Below, piece by piece: positions 7,481 through 43,939 of a stretch of DNA of 64,000 bases. The stretch is from positions 224,001 through 288,000 of the IMG/VR virus record IMGVR_UViG_3300045988_179268; one strand, 5' to 3'. Under the pieces are notes generated by a model. That model searched no databases and was not told the DNA's origin. It saw only the letters and a program-made list of their open reading frames with translations. Position numbers and translations under genes: made by a program. Each line of letters starts with the position of its first letter. The first letter of the stretch is position 1. Origin of the DNA: a virus.

Positions 7481-8410
7481 ACACCCTTTAGGGCACATAA
7501 AACATAAGTGCATGATGATAGGTGACGGTAGTCAAGGGTCGAACCGCTTTTATCTGGTAGAGAGGCAAAACTCTCCAGAGCCACTTCTCGGAAGGGGGAT
7601 GCGGCGCGGGAGTCTTGAACGCTTAACTCTATCGGATTGTGTTTATGTTTTCGCCAGCCTGACGAAGTTCCACTCACGCGGGAACCTGATGACTCATGCT
7701 TGCTAGTATGACGAGGGTACCTGCGGCGCGTGTTTGTACACATAAGCGTATAGTAGAAGGGACAAGCTGACCCGCAACTAGCGCCACCGTTAGCTTCATT
7801 GATAGTGCAATAGGCTAATAGCGGCAAAAGGACGCAGGTCAATACAGCAGAATAGCGACATTCGCACAATGCATGTGCAGGGAACACACTTTATAACTTC
7901 CACATGTTCACAACCTGCCCTGTATTTAACGGATGTTAGAGACACCCCAACGGACGTTTGGGTAAGTGGACGGTAAAGCTGAATCAAAGCCCCAATAAGG
8001 CATGACGAAGCATTATCACACCAGAAGCGTGTCACTGTGCAACTATGTTGCCCGCCAGTAAATGAGCAAAGCTGGCATTATCGGGCACCGCCAATAGTTG
8101 CCGGCTGTTTGCCCAGCCACACAGTATTTCATGGGCACACTGGATGTGACAAAAATACCAGCCACTTACAAATGCTCAAACCAACGTCACCACCAGAAGG
8201 TTCAATATAACGAGCCTCACAGTGGTTTGAGGAACGACGACCTACCCCTCTTGCAGGAGGGTGAAGTCGGGCCAACAGTTGAACGCAACACAACGCAGGA
8301 AACTGATTCGTTACTTATCGTTGCGGGTGTCTCTCTTTTTATGTGCAAAAATAGCCTCTCACCTATGGGGGAAACCTCAAACAATTACATCGCAAAGACT
8401 CGCACGAATT
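7385..8410. ncRNA. candidate large non-coding region (omega-RNA plus unknown structured RNA?)
   Basis: About 1.1 kb with TAA/TAG in all plus-strand frames. Track ORFs here lack an RBS and look non-protein-like. It begins with three consecutive perfect hairpins. Confidence 0.3.
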
Positions 8411-16046: not shown

Positions 16047-16189
16047 CACCTCGCCTGTGAGAGACGGGAGAGGTGGATAATCTAAACGGATAGGTGGCAT
16101 CGGTTACCTGTCAAGACCAGGATAACTGGCATCAGACAGTTTGAGGGTCACCGTTAAGGAAAATCCTTAACTCATCTACCGAATGACTC
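16047..16189 (+). ncRNA. scaffold RNA module S1
   Basis: Full copy: hairpin 1 CACCTCGCC..GGGAGAGGTG, AATCTAAACGG, GTCAAGACCAGGA, TGAGGGTCACCGT, hairpin TAAGGA/TCCTTA, terminal ..GAATGACTC. Confidence 0.75.
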
Positions 16190-16232
16190 TGGGTAATACG
16201 GATTAGCGGGGTAATCACCCTTGCCAGGAAGC

Positions 16233-16333
16233 GTATTCTCCGTACACGCGGGGATGACTCCGGTTTCTGCCCCGTAAATGGGTTAGCCTCATGGCACGCC
16301 GCATCGTATTCTCCGTACACGCGGGGATGACTC
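16233..16333 (+). CRISPR. mini-array: two identical 28-nt type I-E-like repeats
   Basis: GTATTCTCCGTACACGCGGGGATGACTC at 16233-16260 and 16306-16333. It forms a 7-bp stem TCTCCGT/GCGGGGA with a 4-nt loop. The spacer between the two repeats is 45 nt; 43 nt separate the S1 end from the first repeat. Confidence 0.75.
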
Positions 16334-16447
16334 TATAAACGGGTGGGCAACATTCGTGTCGCACGTCAAGACCAGGAGAGTTAGGTAACTAGCTTGAGGG
16401 TCACCGCCTAGTGAAACACTAGACCCACCCCGCGCAGGGGATGGCTC
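16334..16447 (+). ncRNA. scaffold RNA module S2 (hairpin 1 replaced by a CRISPR repeat)
   Basis: Starts TATAAACGGG directly after repeat 16306-16333. Carries GTCAAGACCAGGA, TGAGGGTCACCG and CTAGTG/CACTAG, and ends GCGCAGGGGATGGCTC. Confidence 0.7.
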
Positions 16448-16485
16448 CCCGAGTCAGCAACAGGCAACCCAGACATCTTAACCGC

Positions 16486-16568
16486 GTTCCCTATATACGC
16501 GGGATGACTCACAGGCTCACCCTCACATACTCGCTGGGTGGATTCTCCAACATACGTAGGGCTGGCTC
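16486..16568 (+). CRISPR. two degenerate repeats after S2
   Basis: GTTCCCTATATACGCGGGATGACTC (16486-16510) and GATTCTCCAACATACGTAGGGCTGGCTC (16541-16568). Spacers are 38 and 30 nt. Confidence 0.55.
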
Positions 16569-16604
16569 ATACCAGGTGTGTGACACAGATAACACAAAAT
16601 CAGG

Positions 16605-16634
16605 TTGCGTACCATGAAAAACATGTGGTACACT
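16605..16634 (+). promoter_or_regulatory. promoter (TTGCGT -35, TGGTACACT extended -10)
   Basis: -35/-10 spacing is about 18 nt. Homologous promoters sit at 17288, 18203 and 19933. Confidence 0.65.
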
Positions 16635-16718
16635 TGATATATAAGGCGCGGGGGTTTGAGAAAGCCGCCAATGCAAAGCTCATTGATAACTATATAGGGT
16701 AAAAACTATTGAACATAA
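16635..16718 (+). ncRNA. conserved leader L1 upstream of tRNA-Tyr
   Basis: About 84 nt between the promoter and the tRNA, homologous to 18233-18314 (shared ..GCAAAAGCTCATTGA.AAC..TATAG.GTAAA..). Confidence 0.3.
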
Positions 16719-16802
16719 GCCGCAGTGCCTGAGTTTGGAAAAAGGGGCTGACTGTAAATTAGCTGTCGTTCGACTACGGGGGTTCAAATCCCTCCTGCGG
16801 CA
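16719..16802 (+). tRNA. tRNA-Tyr (GTA)
   Basis: Acceptor GCCGCAG/CTGCGGC, anticodon arm GCTGA-CTGTAAA-TTAGC, long variable arm, T arm GGGGG-TTCAAAT-CCCTC. No encoded CCA. Confidence 0.85.
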
Positions 16803-16833
16803 CGCAACACATCATTAAGATGTGTTCTATATA

Positions 16834-16970
16834 CCTCGCCTGTTGGTGAGATGGGAGAGGTAGTAAAAATAAACGGGTAGGCAACAGTGTTTGTCACGCC
16901 AAAACCTGAAAAGCAGGTTATAGCCACAGGGCAATCTGGGCGCTCCTTGACCGTGCAACAAGGGGTCACC
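16834..16970 (+). ncRNA. divergent scaffold-like module S3
   Basis: Keeps hairpin 1 (CCTCGCCTG..GGGAGAGG), AAATAAACGGG and GGGGTCACC, but the middle differs and no repeat follows. Confidence 0.45.
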
Positions 16971-17030
16971 AAAAATCAAAGCACGGGTATGTTCAACACG
17001 TCAGCATAATTGAGTGCTGTGACCTCGACC

Positions 17031-17174
17031 TGCGAGGGGCGGGGAGGTCGAAAAAATAAATGGGCAGGCGGCTACCAGCTATCCTGTCAAGACCAGGAAG
17101 GCTGACGACAGTCAGCTGGAGGGTTACCGTCTAGTGAAACGCTAGACCCAACTCATATAGAGGAAATCCGGCTC
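17031..17174 (+). ncRNA. scaffold RNA module S4
   Basis: Hairpin 1 GACCTC..GAGGTC, AAATAAATGGG, GTCAAGACCAGGA, GGCTGAC/GTCAGCT, GGAGGGTTACCGT, CTAGTG/CGCTAG. Ends ..CCGGCTC. Confidence 0.7.
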
Positions 17175-17190
17175 AGTATATATCAGGGGT

Positions 17191-17260
17191 CACTTTCCCA
17201 TACACGCGAGGATGGCTCCATAGCGGGATGGTTGAAACCTCCCTACATGCGGGATGGCTC
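17191..17260 (+). CRISPR. two degenerate repeats after S4
   Basis: CACTTTCCCATACACGCGAGGATGGCTC (17191-17218) and CCTCCCTACATGCGGGATGGCTC (17238-17260). Intervening segments are short (16 and 19 nt). Confidence 0.5.
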
Positions 17261-17287
17261 CCGCAACAAAATAATACGAAACCAGGC

Positions 17288-17316
17288 TTGCAAACCACAA
17301 AAACATGTGGTACACT
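17288..17316 (+). promoter_or_regulatory. promoter (TTGCAA-17 nt-TACACT with TGG extension)
   Basis: CTTGCAAACCACAAAAACATGTGGTACACT. The -10 hexamer ends 11 nt before the first base of tRNA(UCA). Confidence 0.7.
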
Positions 17317-17327
17317 GGTTTACATAG

Positions 17328-17398
17328 GCCCATCTAGCTTAATGTAAAGCAACAGTCTTCAAAACTGTGAGATGTCGGTTCAAGTCCGGCGGTGGGTG
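17328..17398 (+). tRNA. tRNA with anticodon TCA (UGA-decoding; suppressor or reassignment tRNA)
   Basis: Acceptor GCCCATC/GGTGGGT (two G-U pairs), D arm GCTT-AATGTA-AAGC (short loop with no GG), anticodon arm ACAGT-CTTCAAA-ACTGT, variable GAGAT, T arm GTCGG-TTCAAGT-CCGGC. 71 nt. Confidence 0.7.
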
Positions 17399-17447
17399 CT
17401 TGCAAGTAACAAAACCGGAGTTCTAGCCGAAAGTGGCGTAACTTGCG

Positions 17448-17529
17448 GCGTGTAATGACCACGAAGGCAAGTGGCGAGCCCAGTTAGAATGGGCACGTAA
17501 TAGTAGGGGTCGGTTCCCTTCTACACGCT
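17448..17529 (+). tRNA. non-canonical tRNA-like element (anticodon-like loop GTTAGAA)
   Basis: Perfect 7-bp acceptor GCGTGTA/TACACGC, hairpin GCCCA-GTTAGAA-TGGGC, T-like arm AGGG-GTCGGTT-CCCT. The D region and junctions do not fit a standard cloverleaf. Confidence 0.3.
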
Positions 17530-17534
17530 CTACA

Positions 17535-17674
17535 CTCCTCGTCTGCGAGAGATTGGGAGAGGAGGATAATAAAAACGGGCGCTAACCGCGTCAAGACCAG
17601 GAAAGCCAACGATAGTCAGCTTGAGGGTCACCGTCTAGTGAAACACTAGACCCAGCCCACGTAAGGGGCGGCTC
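17535..17674 (+). ncRNA. scaffold RNA module S5
   Basis: Full copy ending ACGTAAGGGGCGGCTC. It is fused directly to a 5'-truncated tRNA-like sequence. Confidence 0.7.
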
Positions 17675-17728
17675 AAGAGCAGTGCTTTTACACAGCAAAG
17701 GTCGTGGGTTCAAATCCCTCACGAACCA
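17671..17728 (+). pseudogene. 5'-truncated tRNA-like fragment (Val TAC-like)
   Basis: GCTC-AA-GAGC, then TGCT-TTTACAC-AGCA, then GGTCGTGGGTTCAAATCCCTCACGA. No 5' acceptor strand is present. Its D-stem GCTC is the last 4 nt of S5. Confidence 0.35.
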
Positions 17729-17756
17729 CACTTGGTACCCTTTTATAGGGCATCAA

Positions 17757-17829
17757 GTCTCTTTAGCTCAGATAGTAGAGCGCCCGCCTGAAGAGCGGGA
17801 GGTCGCCAGTGCAAGCCTGGCAGGAGACA
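17757..17829 (+). tRNA. tRNA-Phe (GAA)
   Basis: Acceptor GTCTCTT/AGGAGAC, D arm GCTC-AGATAGTA-GAGC, anticodon arm CCCGC-CTGAAGA-GCGGG, T arm GCCAG-TGCAAGC-CTGGC. Confidence 0.85.
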
Positions 17830-17862
17830 CGTAAGCCCACCTATTTTTTCGGTGGTGCATTA

Positions 17863-18004
17863 CCTCTCGCCTGTGAGAGACGGGAGAGAGTGAAAACGGA
17901 CGGGCGGCTTCGGTTGCCTGTCAAGACCAGGAGAATTAACTTCGGTTAATTTGAGGGTTACCGTCTAGTAAAATACTTAGACCCACCCATGTATGGGAAG
18001 GCTC
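17863..18004 (+). ncRNA. scaffold RNA module S6
   Basis: Full copy with hairpins ATTAAC/GTTAAT and CTAGTA/TACTTAG. Ends ATGTATGGGAAGGCTC. Confidence 0.7.
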
Positions 18005-18037
18005 ATCCAGTCTACAGCTAAGAAAGCGCGCGGTGCA

Positions 18038-18064
18038 GTATTTCTTATATACACGGGATGGCTC
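18038..18064 (+). CRISPR. single degenerate repeat, 33 nt after S6
   Basis: GTATTTCTTATATACACGGGATGGCTC. The spacer 18005-18037 is exactly 33 nt. Confidence 0.55.
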
Positions 18065-18202
18065 TCTTACAGTCTGGTTCCTTTTTTGCGCCCATGTGGG
18101 CTGACTGGGAATTACTTATATGAAGAAAGAAGAGATGTGGCATCACTAACATGCACTGCTTTATCTCTGTTTTTTCAGTGACACAGATAACACAAAATCG
18201 AG

Positions 18203-18232
18203 TTGCAAACCACGAAAAACATGTGGTACACT
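18203..18232 (+). promoter_or_regulatory. promoter (TTGCAA -35, TGGTACACT)
   Basis: GTTGCAAACCACGAAAAACATGTGGTACACT, a paralog of 17288-17316. Confidence 0.7.
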
Positions 18233-18314
18233 TTATATATGAGACGTGAGGGCTTGAAAGAGTCCCCGACGCAAAAGCTCATTGAAAACCTTATAGAGTA
18301 AACTATTTAATCAA
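18233..18314 (+). ncRNA. conserved leader L2 upstream of tRNA-Tyr
   Basis: Homologous to L1 (16635-16718). Confidence 0.3.
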
Positions 18315-18398
18315 GCCGTTGTATCCAAGTGGTCAAAGGAAACTGTCTGTAAAACAGTCGCTATCGAAGCTTCGTGGGTTCGACTCCCTCCGGCGGCA
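18315..18398 (+). tRNA. tRNA-Tyr (GTA)
   Basis: Acceptor GCCGTTG/CGGCGGC (G-U pairs), anticodon arm ACTGT-CTGTAAA-ACAGT, long variable arm, T-loop TTCGACT. Confidence 0.8.
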
Positions 18399-18469
18399 CG
18401 AGACACATTACTAGAATGTGTTTAGCTACATCATCTATACGTGCTATAGTTGTTGCAGTAAATATTTTT

Positions 18470-18540
18470 GGCGTACTAGTTTAGTGGTAAAACCTCAGTC
18501 TTCCAAACTGATGATACGGGTTCGATTCCCGTGTACGCCT
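18470..18540 (+). tRNA. tRNA-Trp (CCA)
   Basis: Acceptor GGCGTAC/GTACGCC, D arm GTTT-AGTGGTA-AAAC, anticodon arm TCAGT-CTTCCAA-ACTGA, T arm ACGGG-TTCGATT-CCCGT. Confidence 0.85.
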
Positions 18541-18544
18541 CTAT

Positions 18545-18683
18545 GCTCCTCGCCTGTGAGAGACGGGAGAGGAGCTAAATCTAAACGGACACTCACGTGT
18601 CAAGACCAGGAGAGTTGGGCAACCTACTCAAGGGTTACCGTCAAAGTAAAGCTTTGGCACGCTCCGCATAAGGTCGATGACTT
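18545..18683 (+). ncRNA. scaffold RNA module S7
   Basis: Begins 5 nt after tRNA-Trp. Short hairpin 2 ACAC/GTGT and hairpin CAAAGT/GCTTTG. Ends GCATAAGGTCGATGACTT. Confidence 0.7.
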
Positions 18684-18751
18684 AGAGTAAGTATCTACAT
18701 GTTCTAAGTCATCGTGCGGGATTCGCGTCTCACTAAATCCTGCGTGTCTAA

Positions 18752-18777
18752 GGATTCTCCTTCTCATTAGAGAGACT
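18752..18777 (+). CRISPR. single highly degenerate repeat
   Basis: GGATTCTCCTTCTCATTAGAGAGACT keeps ATTCTCC and a TCTC/GAGA stem. Confidence 0.35.
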
Positions 18778-18818
18778 ATAGATGCGTTTTACATAATCTG
18801 AAATAACTAACACTTTAA

Positions 18819-18900
18819 GCGCTTGTGGCGGAATTGGCAGACGCGGCAGACTTAGAATCTGTTGTCAGCAGACGTGTGGGTTCGAGTCCCACCAGGCGCA
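18819..18900 (+). tRNA. tRNA-Leu (TAG)
   Basis: Acceptor GCGCTTG/CAGGCGC, anticodon arm GCAGA-CTTAGAA-TCTGT, long variable arm, T arm GTGGG-TTCGAGT-CCCAC. Confidence 0.85.
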
Positions 18901-18930
18901 CTTGGTGTCCACAAGTGCATGTGGGTGCCC

Positions 18931-19052
18931 GCTTCCGTATCCAAGCTAGGTTAAGGGGAGCGTCTTTCATGAGCCTTCTGCACATAACGGCTATGGGAGC
19001 GCTTGCGGTGCATGAGAGTGCCCGCGCGCCGGTTCAAATCCGGTCGGAAGCA
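18931..19052 (+). tRNA. atypical 122-nt tRNA-like RNA
   Basis: Perfect acceptor GCTTCCG/CGGAAGC, T arm GCCGG-TTCAAAT-CCGGT, D-like TCCAAGCTAGGTTAAGGGGA. The interior has two long hairpins and I found no standard 7-nt anticodon loop. Confidence 0.35.
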
Positions 19053-19083
19053 CGTAACGCCACCTACTATGGTGGCTTGTTAC

Positions 19084-19227
19084 TCACCTCGCCTATGAGA
19101 GATGGGAGAGGTGAATAATCTAAACGGACACTAACCATGTCAAGACCAGGAGAACTAGCTTACGCTGGTTAGAGGGTCACCGTCTAACAAAATGTTTAGA
19201 CCCGCCTCGTATTTATGGGGTAGGCTT
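19084..19227 (+). ncRNA. scaffold RNA module S8
   Basis: Full copy with hairpins AACTAGC/GCTGGTT and CTAACA/TGTTTAG. Ends TATGGGGTAGGCTT. No repeat follows. Confidence 0.7.
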
Positions 19228-19327
19228 TCAGCCTCATTAGGTAACCTATTGAGGCACCCTTATTGCAATAGGGGAGCCTTCGGGCTTCTGGCTTTTATCA
19301 CTCATTCTTTTGCGAGATTGAGTGTTG

Positions 19328-19339
19328 GTGTGGTATACT
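19328..19339 (+). promoter_or_regulatory. promoter-like extended -10 (GTGTGGTATACT)
   Basis: Variant of the motif, about 20 nt upstream of tRNA-Leu(TAA). Confidence 0.45.
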
Positions 19340-19358
19340 TATCATGCTTACTCTTTAG

Positions 19359-19438
19359 GCGCTTGTGGCGGAACTGGCAGACGCGGCGGACTTAAAATCC
19401 GCTTCTTCGGAGTGTGGGTTCGAGTCCCACCTGGCGCA
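19359..19438 (+). tRNA. tRNA-Leu (TAA)
   Basis: Acceptor GCGCTTG/CTGGCGC (one T-T mismatch), anticodon arm GCGGA-CTTAAAA-TCCGC, variable arm, T arm GTGGG-TTCGAGT-CCCAC. Confidence 0.8.
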
Positions 19439-19468
19439 CGCAACCACCCTTAACTGGGAGGTTTATAT

Positions 19469-19542
19469 TCCCTTGTAGCTCAATTGGCAGATGCGCCCGA
19501 CTGTTAATCGGGAGGTTACTGGTTCGAGTCCAGTCTGGGGAG
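19469..19542 (+). tRNA. tRNA-Asn (GTT)
   Basis: Acceptor TCCCTTG/CTGGGGA (one mismatch), anticodon arm CCCGA-CTGTTAA-TCGGG, T arm ACTGG-TTCGAGT-CCAGT. Confidence 0.8.
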
Positions 19543-19594
19543 CTTACGTCACTTATGCGTGGCGTTGATACCTTAGCTTTTTTGTTAAGGTTCT

Positions 19595-19670
19595 GGTCTG
19601 TTAGCTCAGTGTTGGTTAGAGCACCGCCCTGTCACGGCGGAGGCCGCGGGTTCGAGCCCCGTACAGACCG
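19595..19670 (+). tRNA. tRNA-Asp (GTC)
   Basis: Acceptor GGTCTGT/ACAGACC, anticodon arm CCGCC-CTGTCAC-GGCGG, T arm GCGGG-TTCGAGC-CCCGT. Confidence 0.9.
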
Positions 19671-19691
19671 CGTATAGTTTTTTTGGCTATG

Positions 19692-19831
19692 CCTCTCGCC
19701 TGTGAGAGACGGGAGAGAGTAAAAACGGACAGGTAGCTTCGGTTACCTGTCAAGACCAGGATAGCGGGGTAACCTGCTTGAGGGTCACCGTCTGACAAAA
19801 TGTTAGACCCAGCCCACGTAGGGGATGGCTC
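19692..19831 (+). ncRNA. scaffold RNA module S9
   Basis: Full copy with hairpins AGCGGG/CCTGCT and CTGACA/TGTTAG. Ends CCCACGTAGGGGATGGCTC. Confidence 0.75.
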
Positions 19832-19864
19832 CTTGGACTCGAAGTTTTGACGAATAGGGAGTCC

Positions 19865-19892
19865 GTTTTCCCAGCACACGCGGGAGTGGCTC
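19865..19892 (+). CRISPR. single repeat, 33 nt after S9
   Basis: GTTTTCCCAGCACACGCGGGAGTGGCTC (28 nt). The spacer 19832-19864 is exactly 33 nt. Confidence 0.65.
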
Positions 19893-19932
19893 ACCGTGAC
19901 CTCCTGTGTGATACAGGTAACATAAAAACGGC

Positions 19933-19962
19933 TTGCATACCATAGAAACTATATGGTACACT
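19933..19962 (+). promoter_or_regulatory. promoter (TTGCAT -35, TGGTACACT)
   Basis: GCTTGCATACCATAGAAACTATATGGTACACT upstream of the Thr-Ala-Lys tRNA block. Confidence 0.65.
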
Positions 19963-20029
19963 TGCTATATATGGTTCGGGGAAACCTGAAAGACCGATAC
20001 GCTATTTCTTAATTGAATGAATTTTTTTT

Positions 20030-20103
20030 GCCTCCTTAGCTCAGTTGGTTAGAGCATCTGTCTTGTAAACAGAGGGTCGCCGGTTCGACTCCGGCAGGAG
20101 GCT
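20030..20103 (+). tRNA. tRNA-Thr (TGT)
   Basis: Acceptor GCCTCCT/AGGAGGC, anticodon arm TCTGT-CTTGTAA-ACAGA, T arm GCCGG-TTCGACT-CCGGC. Confidence 0.9.
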
Positions 20104-20139
20104 CGCTAAAGTAGATAGTTTTACTGTTTGCTTTTATGA

Positions 20140-20212
<73 letters not shown>

Positions 20213-20242
20213 CTCACACGCCTGTTGCAGGTTGTGTGTTAA

Positions 20243-20315
20243 GCGCCTTTAGCTCAGTCGGTAGAGCAGTGGACTTTTAATCCTCGGGTCGCGGGTTCGA
20301 GCCCCGCAGGGCGCA
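20243..20315 (+). tRNA. tRNA-Lys (TTT)
   Basis: Acceptor GCGCCTT/AGGGCGC, anticodon arm GTGGA-CTTTTAA-TCCTC (one mismatch), T arm GCGGG-TTCGAGC-CCCGC. Confidence 0.8.
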
Positions 20316-20552
20316 CGTAGCATGAAGGGATGTAGCTAATCCTTTCGTAATACACCGGATAAACACTATTCAGAAGGTCGTAGGTTAAAATCCTGCCACG
20401 TGCCACATTGCACGTGTAGCTCGGTGTTATAAGAGCGTCTGGACGGTGCCGGTTTAAGCCATACACAGGGGAAGTGACCTACACACTTCCATAGGGGTAG
20501 CGCCCCGGCTGTCTTGTAGGATAAGGGTACCTCTTAGCGGGGGTGCTCTCAT

Positions 20553-20628
20553 GGTCTGTTAGCTCAGTGTTGGTTAGAGCACCGCCCTGTCACGGCGGAG
20601 GTCGCGGGTTCAAGTCCCGTACAGACCG
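20553..20628 (+). tRNA. tRNA-Asp (GTC), second copy
   Basis: Near-identical to 19595-19670. T-loop is TTCAAGT. Confidence 0.9.
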
Positions 20629-20666
20629 CTTATATGGCGCACTGACCGCCTAAATAGTCAGTCTAA

Positions 20667-20740
20667 GCCCTTGTAACTCAGCTGGTTAGAGTGCCGCTCT
20701 GATAAGGCGGATGCCGGTGGTTCAAGTCCACCCAAGGGCA
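20667..20740 (+). tRNA. tRNA-Ile (GAT)
   Basis: Acceptor GCCCTTG/CAAGGGC, anticodon arm CCGCT-CTGATAA-GGCGG, T arm GGTGG-TTCAAGT-CCACC. Confidence 0.9.
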
Positions 20741-20742
20741 CT

Positions 20743-20814
20743 GTGTGTGAAGCCGGATAGCGAGGCGCTTGCTTGTGGCGCAAGTAGTAGCGGGTGCGAT
20801 TCCCGTCACACACC
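20743..20814 (+). tRNA. tRNA-His (GTG)
   Basis: Acceptor GTGTGTG/CACACAC with discriminator C, anticodon arm CTTGC-TTGTGGC-GCAAG, T arm GCGGG-TGCGATT-CCCGT. Confidence 0.8.
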
Positions 20815-20816
20815 CC

Positions 20817-20891
20817 GCTCCCCTAGTTCAGTCTGGATAGAACGCCGTGCTACGAACGCGGAGGTGGCAGGTTCAAATCCTGCGGGGAGCA
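20817..20891 (+). tRNA. tRNA-Arg (ACG)
   Basis: Acceptor GCTCCCC/GGGGAGC, anticodon arm CCGTG-CTACGAA-CGCGG, T arm GCAGG-TTCAAAT-CCTGC. Lies 2 nt after tRNA-His. Confidence 0.9.
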
Positions 20892-20924
20892 CGTAACAGC
20901 ACCTATTATGGTAGTGTGTTATAT

Positions 20925-21080
20925 ACCTCGCCTGTGAGAGACGGGAGAGGTGGTAAATCTAAACGGATAGGTGGCATCGGCTACCTGTCAAGACCAGGAT
21001 GGCGGGGCAACCTGCTTGAGGGTCACCGTCTAGTGAAACACTCAGACCCAACCCACATAAGGGAAAACGTAAGGTGAATC
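20925..21080 (+). ncRNA. scaffold RNA module S10
   Basis: Full copy nearly identical to S1 in its 5' half. The terminal part is extended (..CACATAAGGGAAAACGTAAGGTGAATC). Confidence 0.7.
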
Positions 21081-21121
21081 TATTTTGCGGCTTGACCCGG
21101 TATTAAGCCTAGTCAGGAAGA

Positions 21122-21205
21122 TTTTTCCCTACGCATGTGAGGCTGGCTCTACTCAGCCTAACATGCGTAGGCGACGTTTTCTCCGTACACGCGAGGGGAT
21201 GGCTC
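21122..21205 (+). CRISPR. two repeats after S10
   Basis: TTTTTCCCTACGCATGTGAGGCTGGCTC (21122-21149) and GTTTTCTCCGTACACGCGAGGGGATGGCTC (21176-21205). The 26-nt spacer is largely the reverse complement of the first repeat. Confidence 0.55.
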
Positions 21206-21288
21206 CGGCTAGGATACGCCCTTCAAGGCGGCGCTACTTTCTTTACATACATAGAAAGTCAGCTTTTATCAATATGCTCACAACATAT

Positions 21289-21361
21289 GCCCCCATCGTC
21301 TAGATGGTTAGGATACTACCCTTTCAAGGTAGAGATGCGGGTTCGAGTCCCGTTGGGGGTA
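21289..21361 (+). tRNA. tRNA-Glu (TTC)
   Basis: Acceptor GCCCCCA/TGGGGGT, anticodon arm CTACC-CTTTCAA-GGTAG, T arm GCGGG-TTCGAGT-CCCGT. Confidence 0.85.
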
Positions 21362-21496
21362 CGCAAGCTTCAAGAGTTATATTTGTAGCTTTTGGAAGCT
21401 GGCATGGGGTCATGCTGTTTTTATAGTTATGGTCACAATTTAACCTTTCGTTACATCGAGTAGCGGCTCGCCGTCTTGTTGGTTGCCGCTATTCTT

Positions 21497-21570
21497 ATCC
21501 CAGTAGCTCAGTGGATAGAGCGCCCGCCTCCTAAGCGGGGTCGTCACAGGTTCGACTCCTGTCTGGGATA
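21497..21570 (+). tRNA. tRNA-Arg (CCT)
   Basis: Acceptor ATCCCAG/CTGGGAT, anticodon arm CCCGC-CTCCTAA-GCGGG, T arm ACAGG-TTCGACT-CCTGT. Confidence 0.8.
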
Positions 21571-21604
21571 CTTTTAGGTAAACCTGTTTTTTAGGTTTAC
21601 CGTT

Positions 21605-21677
21605 GCCTCCTTAGCTCAGCGGATAGAGTACCCGATTCCGAGTCGGGTGGTCACAGGTTCGATTCCTGTAGGAGGCG
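21605..21677 (+). tRNA. tRNA-Arg (CCG)
   Basis: Acceptor GCCTCCT/AGGAGGC, anticodon arm CCCGA-TTCCGAG-TCGGG, T arm ACAGG-TTCGATT-CCTGT. Confidence 0.85.
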
Positions 21678-21678
21678 C

Positions 21679-21750
21679 GTCCCCGTGGTCTAATCGGGAG
21701 GATGCCGCTCTCTCAAGGCGGCGATGCGGGTTCGAGTCCCGTCGGGGGTA
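21679..21750 (+). tRNA. tRNA-Glu (CTC)
   Basis: Acceptor GTCCCCG/CGGGGGT, anticodon arm CCGCT-CTCTCAA-GGCGG, T arm GCGGG-TTCGAGT-CCCGT. Lies 1 nt after tRNA-Arg. Confidence 0.8.
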
Positions 21751-21874
21751 CGCTCATGCGCGGCTTTTTGTTGCGTGTGTTGTGGTGACTTTCGGTAGTT
21801 ACCTTTTTTGTACGGCTTGGGCTGGGTTTGGTTTTTCCTCACTTTTGCCTTACTCAGGTTTCTGGTCGTGTTTC

Positions 21875-21947
21875 GCGCTTTTAGCTCAGTTGGTAGAGCA
21901 AGGGACTCTTAATCCCTGGGTCGCGGGTTCGAGCCCCGCAGGGCGCA
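21875..21947 (+). tRNA. tRNA-Lys (CTT)
   Basis: Acceptor GCGCTTT/AGGGCGC, anticodon arm AGGGA-CTCTTAA-TCCCT, T arm GCGGG-TTCGAGC-CCCGC. Confidence 0.9.
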
Positions 21948-21976
21948 CGTAGCACATTCCTTTTGGGTGTGTTTAC

Positions 21977-22128
21977 TCACCTCGCCTGTGAGGGACTGGG
22001 AGAGGTGGCTAATCTAAACGGATGGGTAGCTTTGATTGCCTGTCAAGACCAGGAGAATCTGCCTTTGGTGGGTTTGAGGGTCACCGTCTAATAAAATATT
22101 AGACCCAACCCTGTGCAGGGGATGGCTC
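21977..22128 (+). ncRNA. scaffold RNA module S11
   Basis: Full copy (hairpin 1 variant ..TGTGAGGGACTGGGAGAGG, hairpin CTAATA/TATTAG). Ends TGTGCAGGGGATGGCTC. Confidence 0.75.
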
Positions 22129-22147
22129 GACAAAAAAGTCAGGCGGT

Positions 22148-22175
22148 GTTTTCCCTGTATACGCGGGGATGACTC
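22148..22175 (+). CRISPR. single repeat after S11
   Basis: GTTTTCCCTGTATACGCGGGGATGACTC. It is 19 nt after the S11 end, and 31 nt separate it from the 5' end of tRNA-Arg(TCT). Confidence 0.65.
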
Positions 22176-22206
22176 ACCGCTAATATGTACAATTCCATAC
22201 CTTTTT

Positions 22207-22279
22207 GCCCTAGTAGCTCAGGGGATAGAGCAGTCGCCTTCTAAGCGATTGGTCGCAGGTTCGAATCCTGCCTGGGGCA
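22207..22279 (+). tRNA. tRNA-Arg (TCT)
   Basis: Acceptor GCCCTAG/CTGGGGC, anticodon arm GTCGC-CTTCTAA-GCGAT, T arm GCAGG-TTCGAAT-CCTGC. Confidence 0.85.
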
Positions 22280-22306
22280 CGCTATATGCCTCAAGGTGTG
22301 TCGCAA

Positions 22307-22456
22307 CACCTCGCCTGTGAGGGACTGGGAGAGGTGGTTAATCTAAACGGGTGGGTGGCTTTGGTTGCCTGCCAAGACCAGGAAAGCTGGCTTCGGTCAG
22401 TTTGAGGGTCACCGTCAAAGTAAAACTTTGGCTCATCTACCGCATAAAGTGAATGG
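22307..22456 (+). ncRNA. scaffold RNA module S12
   Basis: Full copy with hairpins AGCTGGC/GTCAGTT and CAAAGT/ACTTTG. The terminal part is S1-like (CTCATCTACCGCATAAAGTGAATGG). Confidence 0.7.
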
Positions 22457-22496
22457 GAAATGTGGGTTGGCGAGGTGTTTATCCTTGTCAATAAGG

Positions 22497-22638
22497 ATTT
22501 TCCCCGTACACGCGGGGATGGCTCCTGGACCCTCAAACTTGCTAGAGTAGAGCACGTATTTTCCCCGTACACGCGGGGATGGCTCTAACGTCAAGCCTAT
22601 TAGCGTTTACGTTTTCCCTTGTATGCGTGGGGTGACTC
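22497..22638 (+). CRISPR. three-repeat mini-array after S12
   Basis: ATTTTCCCCGTACACGCGGGGATGGCTC twice (22497-22524, 22558-22585) with a 33-nt spacer, then GTTTTCCCTTGTATGCGTGGGGTGACTC (22611-22638) after 25 nt. 31 nt separate the last repeat from tRNA-Glu. Confidence 0.75.
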
Positions 22639-22669
22639 ACAATAACCCTTTTATATATTCACAACATAT

Positions 22670-22743
22670 GCCCCCGTGGTCTAATTGGTCAGGATGCCAC
22701 TTTCTCAAGGTGGGTGGTACGGGTTCGAGTCCCGTCGGGGGTA
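22670..22743 (+). tRNA. tRNA-Glu (CTC), second copy
   Basis: Acceptor GCCCCCG/CGGGGGT, anticodon arm CCACT-TTCTCAA-GGTGG, T arm ACGGG-TTCGAGT-CCCGT. Confidence 0.8.
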
Positions 22744-22775
22744 CGTTCATGCGCGGTTTTTGTTGCGTGTGTTTT

Positions 22776-22848
22776 GCGCTTTTAGCTCAGTTGGTAGAGC
22801 AACGGACTCTTAATCCGTGGGTCGCCGGTTCGAGTCCGGCAGGGCGCA
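22776..22848 (+). tRNA. tRNA-Lys (CTT), second copy
   Basis: Acceptor GCGCTTT/AGGGCGC, anticodon arm ACGGA-CTCTTAA-TCCGT, T arm GCCGG-TTCGAGT-CCGGC. Confidence 0.9.
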
Positions 22849-22877
22849 CGTAGCACATTCCTTTTGGGTGTGTTTAC

Positions 22878-23029
22878 TCACCTCGCCTGTGAGGGACTGG
22901 GAGAGGTGGCTAATCTAAACGGATGGGTAGCCTTTGGGTTGCCTGTCAAGACCAGGAAAATTAGCTTAGGCTGATTCGAGGGTCACCGTCTGGCAAAATG
23001 GCAGACCCACCCTTTGTAGGGGGCGGCTC
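22878..23029 (+). ncRNA. scaffold RNA module S13
   Basis: Near-duplicate of S11 in its 5' half. Hairpins AATTAGC/GCTGATT and CTGGCA/TGGCAG. Ends TTGTAGGGGGCGGCTC. Confidence 0.75.
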
Positions 23030-23062
23030 AGTGTTTGAGAATGAGGGTTGCGCCCTCAGCGA

Positions 23063-23076
23063 GTATTTCCCGTAAA
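23063..23076 (+). CRISPR. truncated repeat, 33 nt after S13
   Basis: GTATTTCCCGTAAA matches only the repeat 5' half. The spacer 23030-23062 is exactly 33 nt. Confidence 0.4.
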
Positions 23077-23098
23077 TATAATTACTATTTCACATTGT

Positions 23099-23172
23099 TC
23101 CCTTGTAGCTCAATTGGCAGATGCGCCCGACTGTTAATCGGGAGGTTGTAGGTTCGAGTCCTTCCGGGGGAG
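23099..23172 (+). tRNA. tRNA-Asn (GTT), second copy
   Basis: Acceptor TCCCTTG/CGGGGGA, anticodon arm CCCGA-CTGTTAA-TCGGG, T-loop TTCGAGT. Confidence 0.8.
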
Positions 23173-23188
23173 CTTTTAATATTGTGTT

Positions 23189-23224
23189 ACGCCCTTGCTG
23201 GTTTTTGCCGGTGAGGGCGTTTTT
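23189..23224 (+). terminator. rho-independent terminator closing the tRNA/scaffold region
   Basis: ACGCCCT..AGGGCGT stem followed by TTTT. Confidence 0.65.
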
Positions 23225-23274
23225 GTTGTATAATTGGTGTACCACATATTTTTTAGTTGAAAGGTTTTCATAGA

Positions 23275-24309
23275 ATGTTTGTTTGCGAGGATGTGTCCCC
23301 TGTTGGTTCTGGCAAGGTTCAGTCTATTTCTTTGGGGGAGTCATTTTTGCCTGGTGACGTGATGGATGTATTGAATCCGTCTATTCCGAGTGCGGCGGCG
23401 CGTATGGTATTGATTTATAAGCGTGATGTTGTCTCTGCTGGTGCGCAGTTGGTGGGCGTTTTCACTGTTTCTGCCGACCCTGCTACTTTTGCGGGTGGTG
23501 TTGATGGTCAGGGTATTATTCCAGGTGTTGCCTCTGGTTCGCTTGTTGAGCGTGTCGTTGAGAGTGTTCCTGTGCAGGGTGGTGATTACGCCTCACATGC
23601 GTTGAAGGTTGCGTCCTGGTTGTCTAATTCTGGTGTGCCGCTGGGTTATGGTGGTGATTTGCGCAATGGTTTTGCTTTTACTGCGTTTGAATCTGCTGAG
23701 GGCGCATGTGCTGTGCCTGATGCGTTTGAGTTTTTGGATGCGGCGGGTGTGTCTGTCCCTTGGTATAACGAGGGTAACTATTTCGGGTACACTGTTTCTG
23801 GTGTTAGTAAGATTAGTTCCCTTAAGGGTGTGGGTTCTGTGTTGGGCGACCTTGGTGACGTTGGTGTGGACTCCCGCGCGCTGAGTCAGGGGGTTGATGG
23901 TGCTGGCGACAATGCTTATGTCGCGTGGTTGCTGTGGGGTGTTGATGATGGTGGTCGTGTTGGGGATGTGCATCTTGTGGCTGGTGACCCGACGCTAAAT
24001 GGGTTCCCGACTGTGGGGTTGCCGTTTATTAAGGGCGCTCCTCAGCTTGTGGGTGTCCCGGTTGAGGAGTATGGTTATCGTTTGGTGACGAAAATGTTCA
24101 CTAATTTCACTTCTGTTTTTGTCACTATTAAGTCCCCTTTGTTTAATGCTAATCGTGTTTGTTATGATGCTGGTAAGGGTTTGTATTCTTTGCCTGTTGT
24201 GGTGACTTTGGGGTCTGAGTCGCCATTGTGGGTGCCTGGCGATTTGGGGGCGCGTATGCGCTATGTTAAGGCTGTTTTGGGGCGCGATGGGGCTTTAAAT
24301 ATCTTGTAA
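23275..24309 (+). CDS. G/V-rich hypothetical protein, paralog 1
   Basis: ATG 23275 after GAAAGG (track 23257..24309). The C-terminal motif NxxRxxYDxxxGLYSLPVVV is shared with the next two ORFs. The coding strand is strongly G+T rich, so stop codons are rare in every frame and the ORF length itself is weak evidence. Confidence 0.55.
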   Translation: MFVCEDVSPVGSGKVQSISLGESFLPGDVMDVLNPSIPSAAARMVLIYKRDVVSAGAQLVGVFTVSADPATFAGGVDGQGIIPGVASGSLVERVVESVPVQGGDYASHALKVASWLSNSGVPLGYGGDLRNGFAFTAFESAEGACAVPDAFEFLDAAGVSVPWYNEGNYFGYTVSGVSKISSLKGVGSVLGDLGDVGVDSRALSQGVDGAGDNAYVAWLLWGVDDGGRVGDVHLVAGDPTLNGFPTVGLPFIKGAPQLVGVPVEEYGYRLVTKMFTNFTSVFVTIKSPLFNANRVCYDAGKGLYSLPVVVTLGSESPLWVPGDLGARMRYVKAVLGRDGALNIL

Positions 24310-29135: not shown

Positions 29136-29738
29136 ATGACCCCCACCCCGCTTATTATGGCAAAGACTGCGCCTAAGCCGCGCCCGCCAAAGAGTCGCCC
29201 TCAGTACGCGAATAAGACTTCTAAGAAGGAGCCTCGTGAACTGGGCGTAGAGGCAACCCTGGCATACCCTGACTGGTATGCAGGGCACAATATGCGTGAG
29301 TATTTCCGAGCCGTAGAAGCAACCCTCAAGGGAATTAAGGAAAAGGGTATTAAGGTAACCTATACGGCGGCATATAACGCATACAGTAACCGTTACACCA
29401 TTAGCTTGCGCCTTAAGAACAAGCGAAACAGCCTACTGACCACCAATGTACGGGGCGCATCATACCCGATTAAGTTCACCACCAACCCCTACACTGCTGT
29501 TGCCGACCACGGGCGCGAAGCACCTTACGAACTTTCCGCCTTTGCGGGTGTCCTAGATAAGGTTGCTCTAGCGAACCGAACCGAAGTGTCTCGCATTGAA
29601 ACACCTATTACCAGCAACAACCCTAGCGACAAGGCTCTTACTAACGGCGTGTACCGTCTGCACCTCAAGCTTCACCCTAAAAGTGGGGCTCAGCGTCGGG
29701 TAGAAAAGCTTAAGCGTGACGCACGTGAACAGGGGTAG
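29136..29738 (+). CDS. hypothetical basic protein
   Basis: RBS AAAGGAGAA and promoter motif at 29046-29059. Lys/Arg/Pro-rich N-terminus. Confidence 0.75.
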   Translation: MTPTPLIMAKTAPKPRPPKSRPQYANKTSKKEPRELGVEATLAYPDWYAGHNMREYFRAVEATLKGIKEKGIKVTYTAAYNAYSNRYTISLRLKNKRNSLLTTNVRGASYPIKFTTNPYTAVADHGREAPYELSAFAGVLDKVALANRTEVSRIETPITSNNPSDKALTNGVYRLHLKLHPKSGAQRRVEKLKRDAREQG

Positions 29739-30637
29739 TGGGCACGATGCTAGATTGGCTTAACAGTAATGGCACAACAACTGTTGTCAATACTGCGTTC
29801 ACTATCGTCCTCCTACTGATATTTCTTTTTCTTCTTATTCTGCACCTGCTAAGTAAGCGTGATAATGAAGGGGCGCTAGGTGCGCCTATCGACTTGACTG
29901 AGGTAGAGGAGGAAAGCGACCACGATTACGGAAGCTGGCTAGACCTCACCCCCGAGGAACCCATACTCGACACCGATGACACTAAAGACATCCCCCTTGA
30001 TTGGTCATACACTCCGATTCGTCGTGATGCAAGCGATTGGGCAAAGGAACTCGACTTAACTTTAGGTAGGCGCGCCACAACGTTCCGTACAGCCGGTTCA
30101 CAGCGGCGAACCTACACGAAGTACAACCCTCGTTCTGCACGACCGCAAGGCATTATTTATGCGCGAACTGAACAGGTCAGTGAGGCACGAAATATCAACC
30201 TGTATGTAGGCGTGGATACCTCAGCGTCTATGAATGAGTATGCACAGTCGCGTCGTGCCGCGCAAGCGCTTGATGAGATTATCCGTAAGGACAACTACCA
30301 CACGCTAGTGACATGCGTAGATACCGTTTTTAAGGGGTGGCAGAGCGGCAGTAAGGTTGAAGAGATTTTCGTATCCGGTGGCGGCGGAACCTACATGACT
30401 TCCTTCTTTGAAGAACTCGACAAGATTCGCTGTAACCCTAGCGAGAAACTTACCACCCCTGACGCGGCAGTACTGATTACCGACGGCGAGCTGAATGACT
30501 GCGACTGGGAGAACATTATTGGGCACACACAAACTTTCAGTAGGCAAGAAATGCCCGTATTCATTATCATCACTAACCCGAAGATTAATCCGCCGGAACC
30601 TTTAAAGAACTTCGCCTACGTTTACCACGCTGAATAA
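29738..30637 (+). CDS. von Willebrand factor A (vWA) domain protein with N-terminal TM helix
   Basis: MIDAS-like VGVDTSASM and downstream GGGGTYM. The start overlaps the upstream stop (alternative ATG 29747). Confidence 0.75.
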   Translation: MGTMLDWLNSNGTTTVVNTAFTIVLLLIFLFLLILHLLSKRDNEGALGAPIDLTEVEEESDHDYGSWLDLTPEEPILDTDDTKDIPLDWSYTPIRRDASDWAKELDLTLGRRATTFRTAGSQRRTYTKYNPRSARPQGIIYARTEQVSEARNINLYVGVDTSASMNEYAQSRRAAQALDEIIRKDNYHTLVTCVDTVFKGWQSGSKVEEIFVSGGGGTYMTSFFEELDKIRCNPSEKLTTPDAAVLITDGELNDCDWENIIGHTQTFSRQEMPVFIIITNPKINPPEPLKNFAYVYHAE

Positions 30638-30664
30638 CTAGCTAACCAGAAAGAGTTAAACCTT

Positions 30665-42054: not shown

Positions 42055-42120
42055 AACATGGAATTTCACAACCATCTAAAAATGTGGTACAGTATAAGTA
42101 TTGGAAAGGAGGGTAACGGA

Positions 42121-43887: not shown

Positions 43888-43939
43888 CGCATCAATCCCC
43901 AATACCACTTAACCCACCTACAGATAGGAAATAATCACT

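Follow-up and report, generated by a model that had tools for sequence, protein, structure and literature searches.

Putative type I-E-family mini-arrays and a structured RNA element in the tRNA operon of a huge phage

The sequence analyzed here is a window of 64 kb (positions 224,001 to 288,000 of IMG/VR record IMGVR_UViG_3300045988_179268) from a phage genome of ~330 kb, and all coordinates are positions in that window. It includes a non-coding operon in which transfer RNA (tRNA) genes are interspersed with two other kinds of element: a 28-nt repeat, R, which forms very short CRISPR (clustered regularly interspaced short palindromic repeat) arrays, and a structured RNA of ~125 nt, S. The arrays probably represent orphan mini-arrays of the type I-E family that have colonized the tRNA operon and borrow the type I-E proteins of the host for conflict between phages.

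Comparisons draw on a pooled set of 115 S-bearing loci, comprising the window, IMG/VR records and metagenomes, with 253 S cores in all. For spacers and cas genes, 2.2 Mb of related phage DNA was used. Related loci are designated by L-numbers. The related DNA sits on metagenomic contigs of 160–360 kb, and the carriers are therefore taken to be huge phages. Among GenBank phages no close relative of the region was found, as megablast matched tRNA fragments only.

Repeats and spacers in the tRNA operon

The operon, and the segment of it with two repeat-to-tRNA junctions treated below, are laid out as follows, R1 being a covariance model of S.

16.0–23.2 kb (listed elements 16049..23029), + strand: non-coding tRNA/S/repeat operon with 25 tRNAs, 13 S copies and 14 repeats
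16049, 16311, 16834, 17023, 17537, 17865, 18548, 19087, 19694, 20926, 21980, 22309, 22881, + strand: starts of the S copies
16233, 16306, 16483, 16541, 17191, 17233, 18037, 19865, 21122, 21178, 22148, 22497, 22558, 22611, + strand: starts of the repeats
19933..19962, + strand: promoter-like site, read from sequence as TTGCAT, an 18-nt spacer and TACACT preceded by TGG
21875..21948, + strand: tRNA-Lys(ctt), with a CGTAGC trailer and hairpin, 31 nt upstream of S10
21980..22128 (core 21980–22106), + strand: S10, R1 score 119.9 bits, E = 1.8e-27
22129..22147, + strand: 19 nt separating the S10 pseudo-repeat from the repeat, conserved in L302
22148–22175, + strand: degenerate repeat of the putative type I-E family, GTTTTCCCTGTATACGCGGGGATGACTC, 3 mismatches from consensus, hairpin kept (−12.8 kcal/mol)
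22176..22206, + strand: first 31-nt segment, ACCGCTAATATGTACAATTCCATACCTTTTT, conserved 5′ leader of tRNA-Arg(tct)
22207..22280, + strand: tRNA-Arg(tct)
22309..22496 (core 22309–22434), + strand: S11 and a leader-like linker up to the array, R1 score 126.1 bits
22497..22638, + strand: mini-CRISPR array of 3 repeats with spacers of 33 and 25 nt (repeat 22497–22524; spacer 22525–22557, 33 nt; repeat 22558–22585; spacer 22586–22610, 25 nt)
22611–22638, + strand: degenerate terminal repeat of that array, GTTTTCCCTTGTATGCGTGGGGTGACTC, folding at only −7.0 kcal/mol
22639..22669, + strand: second 31-nt segment, a 10-nt insert ACAATAACCC and the 21-nt tRNA-Glu leader TTTTATATATTCACAACATAT
22670..22744, + strand: tRNA-Glu(ctc), which with tRNA-Lys(ctt) at 22776–22849 is a duplicate of 21679–21948 (repeat family D11)
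22881..23029, + strand: S12 with pseudo-repeat and handle CGGCTC, found by R1
23099–23173, + strand: tRNA-Asn, last tRNA of the operon
23189–23220, + strand: strong terminator-like hairpin, 14 pairs and then a T run, just past tRNA-Asn

The 14 repeats, each of 28 nt, all lie on the + strand between 16233 and 22638. With up to three mismatches allowed, their consensus matches the window five times and shuffled sequence not at all. The fold of this consensus (−14.5 kcal/mol) is a 7-bp stem capped by a tetraloop, with a 7-nt tail behind it, and the 7-nt handle reads ATGGCTC. The repeats at 22497 and 22558 are spaced 61 nt start to start, which is the period of a type I-E array. Among the matches listed, the core pattern of the repeat recurs at more than 120 loci in bacteria, most of them arrays that have a 61-nt period, and the best full-length identity to a bacterial repeat is 24–26 of 28 positions. 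Typical bacterial handles read ATGAACC, ATGATCC or ATGGACC, as against ATGGCTC in the phage. One array of this pattern, in a Streptococcus genome (L140), adjoins genes for Cas2-DnaQ, Cas1, Cas6e (PF08798) and Cas5.

On the evidence of sequence, then, the repeats belong to the type I-E family. That is, the phage arrays combine a 28-nt stem-loop repeat with a handle and similarity to bacterial repeats, a period of ~61 nt and a 5′ AA protospacer-adjacent motif (PAM). Type I-E systems of the Streptococcus thermophilus kind are characterized by a 28-nt repeat, spacers of 33 nt and an AA PAM. In the pooled loci, the distance between successive repeats has a sharp mode at 33 nt (39 of 69), with a minority of spacers at 19–25 nt. 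The arrays are as short as those described from other viruses and, as with those, no cas genes were found: among 109 unique arrays, 67 consist of 1 repeat, 24 of 2, 12 of 3, 5 of 4 and 1 of 5.

Targets are found for spacers of the relatives. For nine internal spacers, all of them from related phages and none from the window, protospacers are present outside arrays in other loci of related huge phages. AA occupies positions −2 and −1 in eight of these nine protospacers, where the background frequency of AA is 0.056 (p ~8e-10). Spacer L003:1474 matches another huge phage in IMG/VR (L007) at 31 of 32 positions, and for spacer L003:4879 the match is to the tRNA-Asp region of L068, at 29 of 31. BLAST of the spacers against GenBank phages gave no match.

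Two further segments of the operon are of note with regard to spacers. Behind the repeat at 18037–18064, the stretch 18065–18100 is antisense to the 5′ half of a tRNA-Tyr, with 3–4 mismatches to phage tRNA-Tyr genes, and has a conserved counterpart in L271. It could represent either a guide directed at tRNA-Tyr genes or the relic of a rearrangement. In addition, a spacer beside an S element of phage L260 matches 20336–20368 with three mismatches, next to GAA.

The arrays are regarded as orphans because no cas genes were found. A Pfam scan of 43 open reading frames (ORFs) of the window revealed no Cas domain apart from two TnpB-like ORFs, blastp of ORFs from bacterial CRISPR loci against the 2.2 Mb of phage DNA recovered no cas gene, and a Cas6e profile scan of IMG/VR left the S-bearing contigs unmatched, the phage Cas-protein search being limited in sensitivity and in genome coverage. 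Nor was a type I-E cas3-cse1-cse2-cas7-cas5-cas6e-cas1-cas2 operon found beside the arrays.

The operon itself is devoid of long ORFs from 16.0 to 23.2 kb. The window has 27 tRNAs, 25 of them in the operon region. In all 27 the CCA end is unencoded, the discriminator base being followed by C and then by a base other than C, and about nine of the 27 are followed by a CGTAAC, CGTAGC, CGCAAC or CGTAAG trailer and then a small hairpin; a first-pass annotation of this DNA had described the lack of encoded CCA and the trailers of the CGTAAC/CGTAGC type correctly. The common orientation extends to the pooled loci, where 523 of 527 tRNAs share the strand of S, as do 221 repeats, with a single repeat on the opposite strand.

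The promoter-like site at 19933..19962, a predicted promoter, is likely the start of the transcription unit that holds both junctions. Related copies of the motif ACATGTGGTACAC are found at ~15507, 16023, 16621, 17303, 18219 and 19949, and the recurring form is TTGCAnACC..TGTGGTACACT. A similar motif (TTGCAA, ~17 nt, TGTGGTACACT) is also present at 8410 and 42075, so that it precedes tRNA/S units and several genes. A terminator-like hairpin was seen only past the last tRNA, and the one at 23189–23220 appears to mark the operon end. Thus, guide units are flanked by same-strand tRNAs within one predicted transcription unit, and transcription of the operon is presumably polycistronic. In a one-strand polycistron with repeats and guide-like segments between its tRNAs, RNase P and tRNA 3′ processing would define many of the RNA ends.

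The block 21949–23097, with the order S10-R-tRNA-Arg-S11-RRR-tRNA-Glu-tRNA-Lys-S12 and including the duplicated Glu-Lys pair, is an insertion relative to L068, the fetched locus of which has no S.

The S element

The layout of S is CCTCGCCTGTGAGAGACGGGAGAGG..AATCTAAACGG-hairpin-GTCAAGACCAGGA-hairpin-GAGGGTCACCGT-hairpin-GACCC. Four or five helices emerge when 24 copies, taken from the window and related contigs, are aligned, with compensatory changes in 21 of 34 pairs. Paired cells make up 95.6% of this alignment versus 82.6% in shuffles (0 of 500 as high) and 33–44% when the partners are slid. R1, the covariance model built from the 24 copies, finds 13 copies in the window, all on the + strand within 16049–23008, and none elsewhere in the window. 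S has no match in Rfam and is absent from 100 bacterial type I-E loci; it appears to be phage-specific. A search of the region against Rfam, at gathering and E-value thresholds, returned the tRNAs and otherwise weak YrlA-like and plastid-UTR (untranslated region) matches on tRNA-like sequence. S is the truly new element of the locus, a previously undescribed and abundant RNA family that counts more than 200 unique copies and shows strong covariation.

The placement of S is regular. Its core lies 63–201 nt upstream of 95 of the 109 unique arrays (87%), and in 102 of 199 unique copies (51%) S starts 6–36 nt past the 3′ end of a tRNA, with a mode of 29–34 nt. S often ends in a pseudo-repeat that supplies an ATGGCTC handle to the first spacer. 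S10, for example, ends with the pseudo-repeat hairpin CCCTGTGCAGGGG and then the 7-nt handle ATGGCTC. From the pseudo-repeat to the first R the distance is 33 nt in 11 of 26 cases, and a further cluster is found at 19–24 nt.

Among close relatives, the number of S copies spans 0 to more than 17. Lone copies without nearby repeats, intergenic and far from the tRNA operon, are also seen in IMG/VR relatives, as follows.

L001:625–754: lone S copy
L001:10427–10568: lone S copy
L002:3991–4131: lone S copy
L004:3841–3982: lone S copy
L006:1741–1866: lone S copy

S9 ends in a stretch that is 85% complementary to a repeat (inverted repeat I1). Several S copies and repeats lie at junctions. The handle of S4 is fused directly to the 3′ two-thirds of tRNA-Val(tac), at 17675–17726, with GGTC/GGCTC microhomology; the window has no intact tRNA-Val, and relatives have one at the position of the fusion. 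In L232 an S handle is fused to an ORF, inside the gene matching window positions 23257–24309, where intact alleles have GTTGAT. In L216 and L235 it is R that is fused to this gene, at the site 23376–23408, which is preceded by GAA in the window; the L232 fusion lies deeper in the gene. The junctions at gene 23257–24309 look like array-to-gene deletion junctions, and the handle-to-genome junctions as a group suggest frequent recombination, possibly between spacers and protospacers. The apparent "spacers" matching 23376–23408 and the tRNA-Val fragment were considered as cases of targeting and rejected, since the handle is fused to contiguous genome; that is, they are rearrangements.

The two repeat-to-tRNA junctions

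In the inserted block, two repeats end near a tRNA. The first-pass annotation had placed one repeat at 22148–22175, followed by 31 nt (22176–22206) and tRNA-Arg(tct) at 22207, and the other at 22611–22638, followed by 31 nt (22639–22669) and tRNA-Glu(ctc) at 22670; these coordinates are exact. It proposed that RNase P, by cutting at the tRNA 5′ end, would release a handle with a guide of ~31 nt. This proposal is not supported, as the segments are conserved tRNA leaders without a protospacer, the distance is not conserved and the two repeats are degenerate.

The first segment, ACCGCTAATATGTACAATTCCATACCTTTTT, has its homolog in the leader, GCCGCTAGATATTACAAAACCCTATAC, that natively precedes tRNA-Arg(tct) in L071 and L068. 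The fetched L071 and L068 loci have no canonical R there, only a degenerate R-like stretch. The segment has two mismatches in L235 and is identical in L302, and the length of the repeat-to-tRNA-Arg(tct) junction in relatives is 28, 31, 41 or ~54 nt. The second segment is composite, and its leader part, TTTTATATATTCACAACATAT, also precedes tRNA-Glu(ttc) at 21289. The annotation had itself reported that part of this segment (CACAACATAT) recurs upstream of tRNA-Glu(ttc), at 21279–21288, which is so. In L288, L267 and L211, TTTTATATATTCACAACATAT stands directly behind a repeat, so that the repeat-to-tRNA-Glu distance is 21 nt. For neither segment does the 2.2 Mb of related phage DNA hold a protospacer. 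Both are probably tRNA 5′ leaders rather than designed guides.

The spacing tells the same story. From the window's eight terminal repeat or pseudo-repeat ends, the next tRNA is ~150, 67, 250, 137, 83, 31, 31 and 69 nt away. In the 115 pooled loci, 21 of 86 terminal repeats lie 13–47 nt before a tRNA, without a peak at 31, and equal distances occur in any case in ~8% of pairs within this class. The caution in the annotation that the equal length could be coincidental was apt: given the lack of a peak at 31 nt, the differing junctions of the relatives and the leader character of both segments, the equality appears to be coincidental.

A mature type I-E crRNA (CRISPR RNA) retains the downstream repeat hairpin, to which Cas6e is bound. 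Since the repeats are of the type I-E family, an RNA composed of a handle and 31 nt, without a downstream hairpin, would not be a normal product. We suggest that the 31-nt segments are tRNA 5′ leaders abutting degenerate terminal repeats, and that a handle-plus-31-nt RNA with its end at the RNase P site would arise as a processing by-product, not a designed guide. The broader notion of a tRNA-processed guide polycistron survives in part: the same-strand, tRNA-punctuated layout of S and the arrays speaks for it, and the specific 31-nt guides drop out.

Readings of the locus

Our preferred reading, to which we give a probability of about 0.6, is that a phage tRNA operon has been colonized by orphan mini-arrays of the type I-E family that borrow host type I-E proteins for phage-versus-phage conflict. 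The operon would be transcribed from repeated sigma-70-like promoters as long precursors, from which RNase P and tRNA 3′ processing would excise the tRNAs, freeing S-plus-array RNAs. A Cas6e-type nuclease would then cut after the repeat hairpin; given that the searches turned up no cas gene in the phage, this nuclease is assumed to belong to the host. Each resulting crRNA would consist of the 7-nt handle (ATGGCTC), a spacer of ~33 nt and a 21-nt hairpin. Loaded into host Cascade, the crRNAs would direct Cas3 against co-infecting related huge phages at a 5′ AA PAM. What the sequences show is the anatomy of the locus, the repeat family, the length of the spacers, the PAM-flanked protospacers in relatives and the homology of the 31-nt segments to tRNA leaders; polycistronic transcription, the identity of the nucleases, recourse to Cas proteins of the host and a role for S are what we infer.

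A number of points weigh against this reading. The window's own spacers have no protospacer, the 2.2 Mb of related loci yielding only array homologs, and so targeting is shown for the relatives only. The search for a host, by a bacterial repeat scan and with bacterial type I-E spacers, yielded none: the repeat pattern is too widespread, 1762 such spacers gave no convincing match to these phages, and among the matches listed in the repeat scan there was no bacterial array with the exact handle ATGGCTC. The absence of S from the bacterial type I-E loci means that the system is not explained simply as a host array copied along with its leader. The minority of spacers of 19–25 nt is unusual for type I-E. 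The analysis covers 64 kb of a ~330-kb genome, and a phage-encoded effector could lie elsewhere. Lastly, modules in which a repeat is followed by a leader and a tRNA recur across phages, a recurrence that could reflect some function of the junction.

Mini-arrays carried by viruses, which have few spacers, these directed at close relatives, and lack cas genes, have been described (Medvedeva et al. 2019, PMC6858448), and phage mini-arrays have been reviewed (PMC11656645). The present arrays resemble them in having 1–5 repeats, no cas genes found and spacers that match related viruses, and in that the targets often lie near the array region, consistent with interviral conflict by way of host Cas proteins. 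They differ in that they are of the putative type I-E family and come from a huge bacteriophage with dozens of arrays per genome, and in that they sit between the tRNA genes of one operon, with the seemingly phage-specific S instead of a host-like leader. In addition, the phage repeats match the closest bacterial repeats at 24–26 of 28 positions, and the bacteria concerned need not be the hosts. If the preferred reading holds, huge phages would be waging a CRISPR-guided war with many orphan type I-E mini-arrays, which would extend the mini-array concept from small archaeal viruses, and loci of this kind would allow the CRISPR type of the host and the networks of phage-phage competition to be inferred from metagenomes.

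The canonical type I-E systems of Escherichia coli and of S. thermophilus (CRISPR4) offer a second comparison. The phage arrays share with them the 28-nt repeat with a 7-bp stem and tetraloop, the 7-nt handle, the 61-nt period, the 33-nt spacers and the 5′ AA PAM. With S. thermophilus the comparison extends to the repeat sequence and the AA PAM. Unlike the canonical systems, the phage arrays have no cas operon, have the handle ATGGCTC rather than ATGAACC or ATGATCC, are tiny and scattered, contain some spacers of 19–25 nt, and have S in the place of the leader.

What S might do is a further matter. A tentative proposal, which we consider possible although the odds are against it, is that S, as a new class of non-coding phage RNA, and the mini-arrays form a functional unit, and that the tRNA-S-array module is a natural self-processing cassette in which S and its pseudo-repeat recruit or prime either the Cas6e and Cascade of the host or a phage factor. 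tRNA processing would set the 5′ end, the repeat-to-leader-to-tRNA junctions would let RNase P finish the last unit, and phage crRNAs would out-compete those of the host. Xie et al. in 2015 reportedly described engineered polycistronic tRNA-gRNA (guide RNA) arrays in which guide units are flanked by tRNAs and freed by RNase P and RNase Z. The operon is like these arrays in that guide-RNA units stand between tRNAs, with processing that is here predicted. It is unlike them in being natural, and in that the tRNAs flank S-plus-array modules, the guides of which would still need cleavage by a Cas6e-type nuclease. Arrays wired into a tRNA operon would thus be a natural counterpart of engineered tRNA-gRNA multiplexing, and identifying the partner and role of S could bring to light a new step in how crRNAs are made or how host Cas complexes are hijacked. 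If the cassette proposal is true, this would be the first natural tRNA-punctuated system for CRISPR guide expression, and a case in which a virus hijacks host CRISPR at the RNA level.

Other readings turn on the two TnpB-like genes in the window.

6230–7384: ORF A, TnpB/Cas12f-like, 384 aa, with a Cas12f1-like TNB domain, invariant RuvC residues D194, E280 and D364 and a CxxC..CxC zinc finger
40110–41711: ORF B, TnpB/Cas12f-like, 533 aa, with a Cas12f1-like TNB domain, the RuvC D-E-D triad intact, and a zinc finger

ORF A has homologs of 49–96% identity on huge-phage contigs only. Behind it is a conserved non-coding tail of 0.4–1.1 kb (window 7385–~7870), which ends in GGGACAAGC-hairpin-TTGAC/TTGATAG and so resembles the ω-RNA 3′ ends of ordinary TnpB loci; ORF A would seem to be a domesticated TnpB whose guide RNA is unusually long. 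Homologs of ORF B (L007–L067), of 66–78% identity, occur in several copies per contig, for instance at least six on IMGVR_UViG_3300006259_000192, and ORF B seems to behave as an actively spreading mobile element in huge phages. Each of the 13 S copies is separated from ORF A by at least 8.6 kb and from ORF B by at least 17 kb. Close homologs of ORF A and S share contigs, and in IMG/VR they occur on exactly the same two. In L071, S begins 20 nt past the stop codon of an ORF A homolog, an adjacency that looks like the product of a derived ~4.3-kb deletion. In the related ordinary TnpB loci L076, L077 and L079, R1 gave no match with E < 0.8. About 59 loci with ORF B and without ORF A have no S and no clear R, one doubtful match with four mismatches, in L059, aside. 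ORF B was rejected as a partner, since it is multi-copy in more than 30 contigs that have no S or repeats, the doubtful match in L059 aside. That S is the ω-RNA of ORF A, as first suggested by the co-occurrence on contigs and the L071 adjacency, was dropped as the main model because S is not near the ORFs in the window, R1 finds nothing in the TnpB loci, ORF A has its own tail and the repeats are of the type I-E family.

The model in the first-pass annotation, here extended to a repeat serving as a 5′ handle in the manner of type V or TnpB-like systems, which have the guide 3′ of it, with RNase P setting the 3′ end of a ~31-nt guide and ORF A or ORF B as the effector, can be set against these findings. 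The two ORFs, with RuvC triad and zinc finger intact, and the sharing of contigs by S and ORF A homologs argue for it, as do the recurrence in relatives of modules with a repeat, a short leader of 21, 28, 31 or 41 nt and a tRNA, and the variable spacers, including those of 19–25 nt, which fit type V logic. Yet the 31-mers are conserved tRNA leaders that have no targets and are present without a canonical repeat too, the repeat-to-tRNA distance is not conserved, and type I-E is indicated by the repeat family, the mode of 33 nt for spacers and the AA PAM. ORF A, moreover, has an ω-RNA-like tail of its own, neither ORF is adjacent to S or the repeats, and the ~59 ORF B-only loci are without S and a clear R (L059 being doubtful). 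We consider this model quite unlikely. Just as improbable, in our view, is an intermediate between transposon and CRISPR, in which S is an ω-RNA-like scaffold with its 3′ flank as guide, the repeats are split-off 3′ hairpins of S, and ORF A is the user; S might then be mobile, like the right end of an IS200/605 element. Known intermediates of the TnpB ω-RNA/TranC type likewise combine a structured scaffold with a variable guide-like segment, and TnpB-like genes are present in the same genome. The multi-helix scaffold of S followed by a variable segment, its copy number of 0 to more than 17 in close relatives, the fusion of S4 into a truncated tRNA-Val, the L232 fusion at a GTTGAT site, the position of S in L071 and the complementarity of the S9 end to a repeat are all in keeping with such a history. 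However, S is not beside the TnpB-like genes, and the ω-RNA regions of the nearest ordinary TnpBs contain no match to it. ORF A comes with an ω-RNA-like tail of its own, and the L071 adjacency resembles a derived deletion. The S4 junction shows microhomology (GGTC versus GGCTC) rather than a transposon-adjacent target motif (TAM), and the features of the arrays, namely the type I-E repeat, the AA PAM and the 33-nt spacer ruler, indicate Cas1-Cas2 and Cascade.

A further possibility, unlikely in our estimate though less so than the two TnpB-based models, is that the locus makes RNA anti-CRISPR decoys of the Racr kind, the solitary and degenerate repeats, the two at the tRNA junctions among them, and the pseudo-repeats of S sequestering host Cas6e and Cas7 and so blunting type I-E immunity. 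Solitary viral repeat units are a described anti-CRISPR strategy, with type I-E examples (Camara-Wilpert et al. 2023, PMC10651486), and the phage elements are similar in being viral repeat mimics without cas genes, many of them single (67 of the 109 unique arrays). Their high copy number within what is predicted to be a strongly transcribed tRNA operon would suit decoys, as would a handle, ATGGCTC, that is unlike typical bacterial handles. In contrast to known RNA anti-CRISPRs, however, most of the phage repeats flank 33-nt spacers with PAM-adjacent targets, and the 33-nt mode together with PAM-flanked protospacers in rival phages indicates a guide function. Most single repeats are preceded by an S pseudo-repeat and a 33-nt spacer, which makes them one-spacer arrays. 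Decoy and guide functions are not mutually exclusive.

Some minor features of the operon and its surroundings remain to be listed. The tRNA at 17328–17399 has the anticodon TCA (called "SeC" by ARAGORN) and holds the tRNA-Trp(CCA) slot of the syntenic arrays in L068 and L071; it may be a UGA-reading suppressor, hinting at stop-codon recoding. The segment 18931–19052, uncalled by ARAGORN, is a 122-nt full-length match to the Rfam tRNA model (35.7 bits) and is a tRNA-like gene with a long insertion; CGTAAC and S7 come next. Between tRNA-Lys and tRNA-Asp, the structured segment 20317–20552 has a T-arm-like motif and a weak match to YrlA (Y RNA-like; 28 bits).

Outside the operon, the ORF at 2859–4061 encodes an RNA ligase of the T4 Rnl1 type (PF09511, E = 4e-13). 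Such ligases typically serve tRNA repair, which fits a phage with a large tRNA set. Finally, paralogous gene pairs at 29738–32125 and 42058–45490 each consist of a gene for a VWA-like DUF2201 protein beside one for an AAA_5 (MoxR/dynein-type) ATPase.

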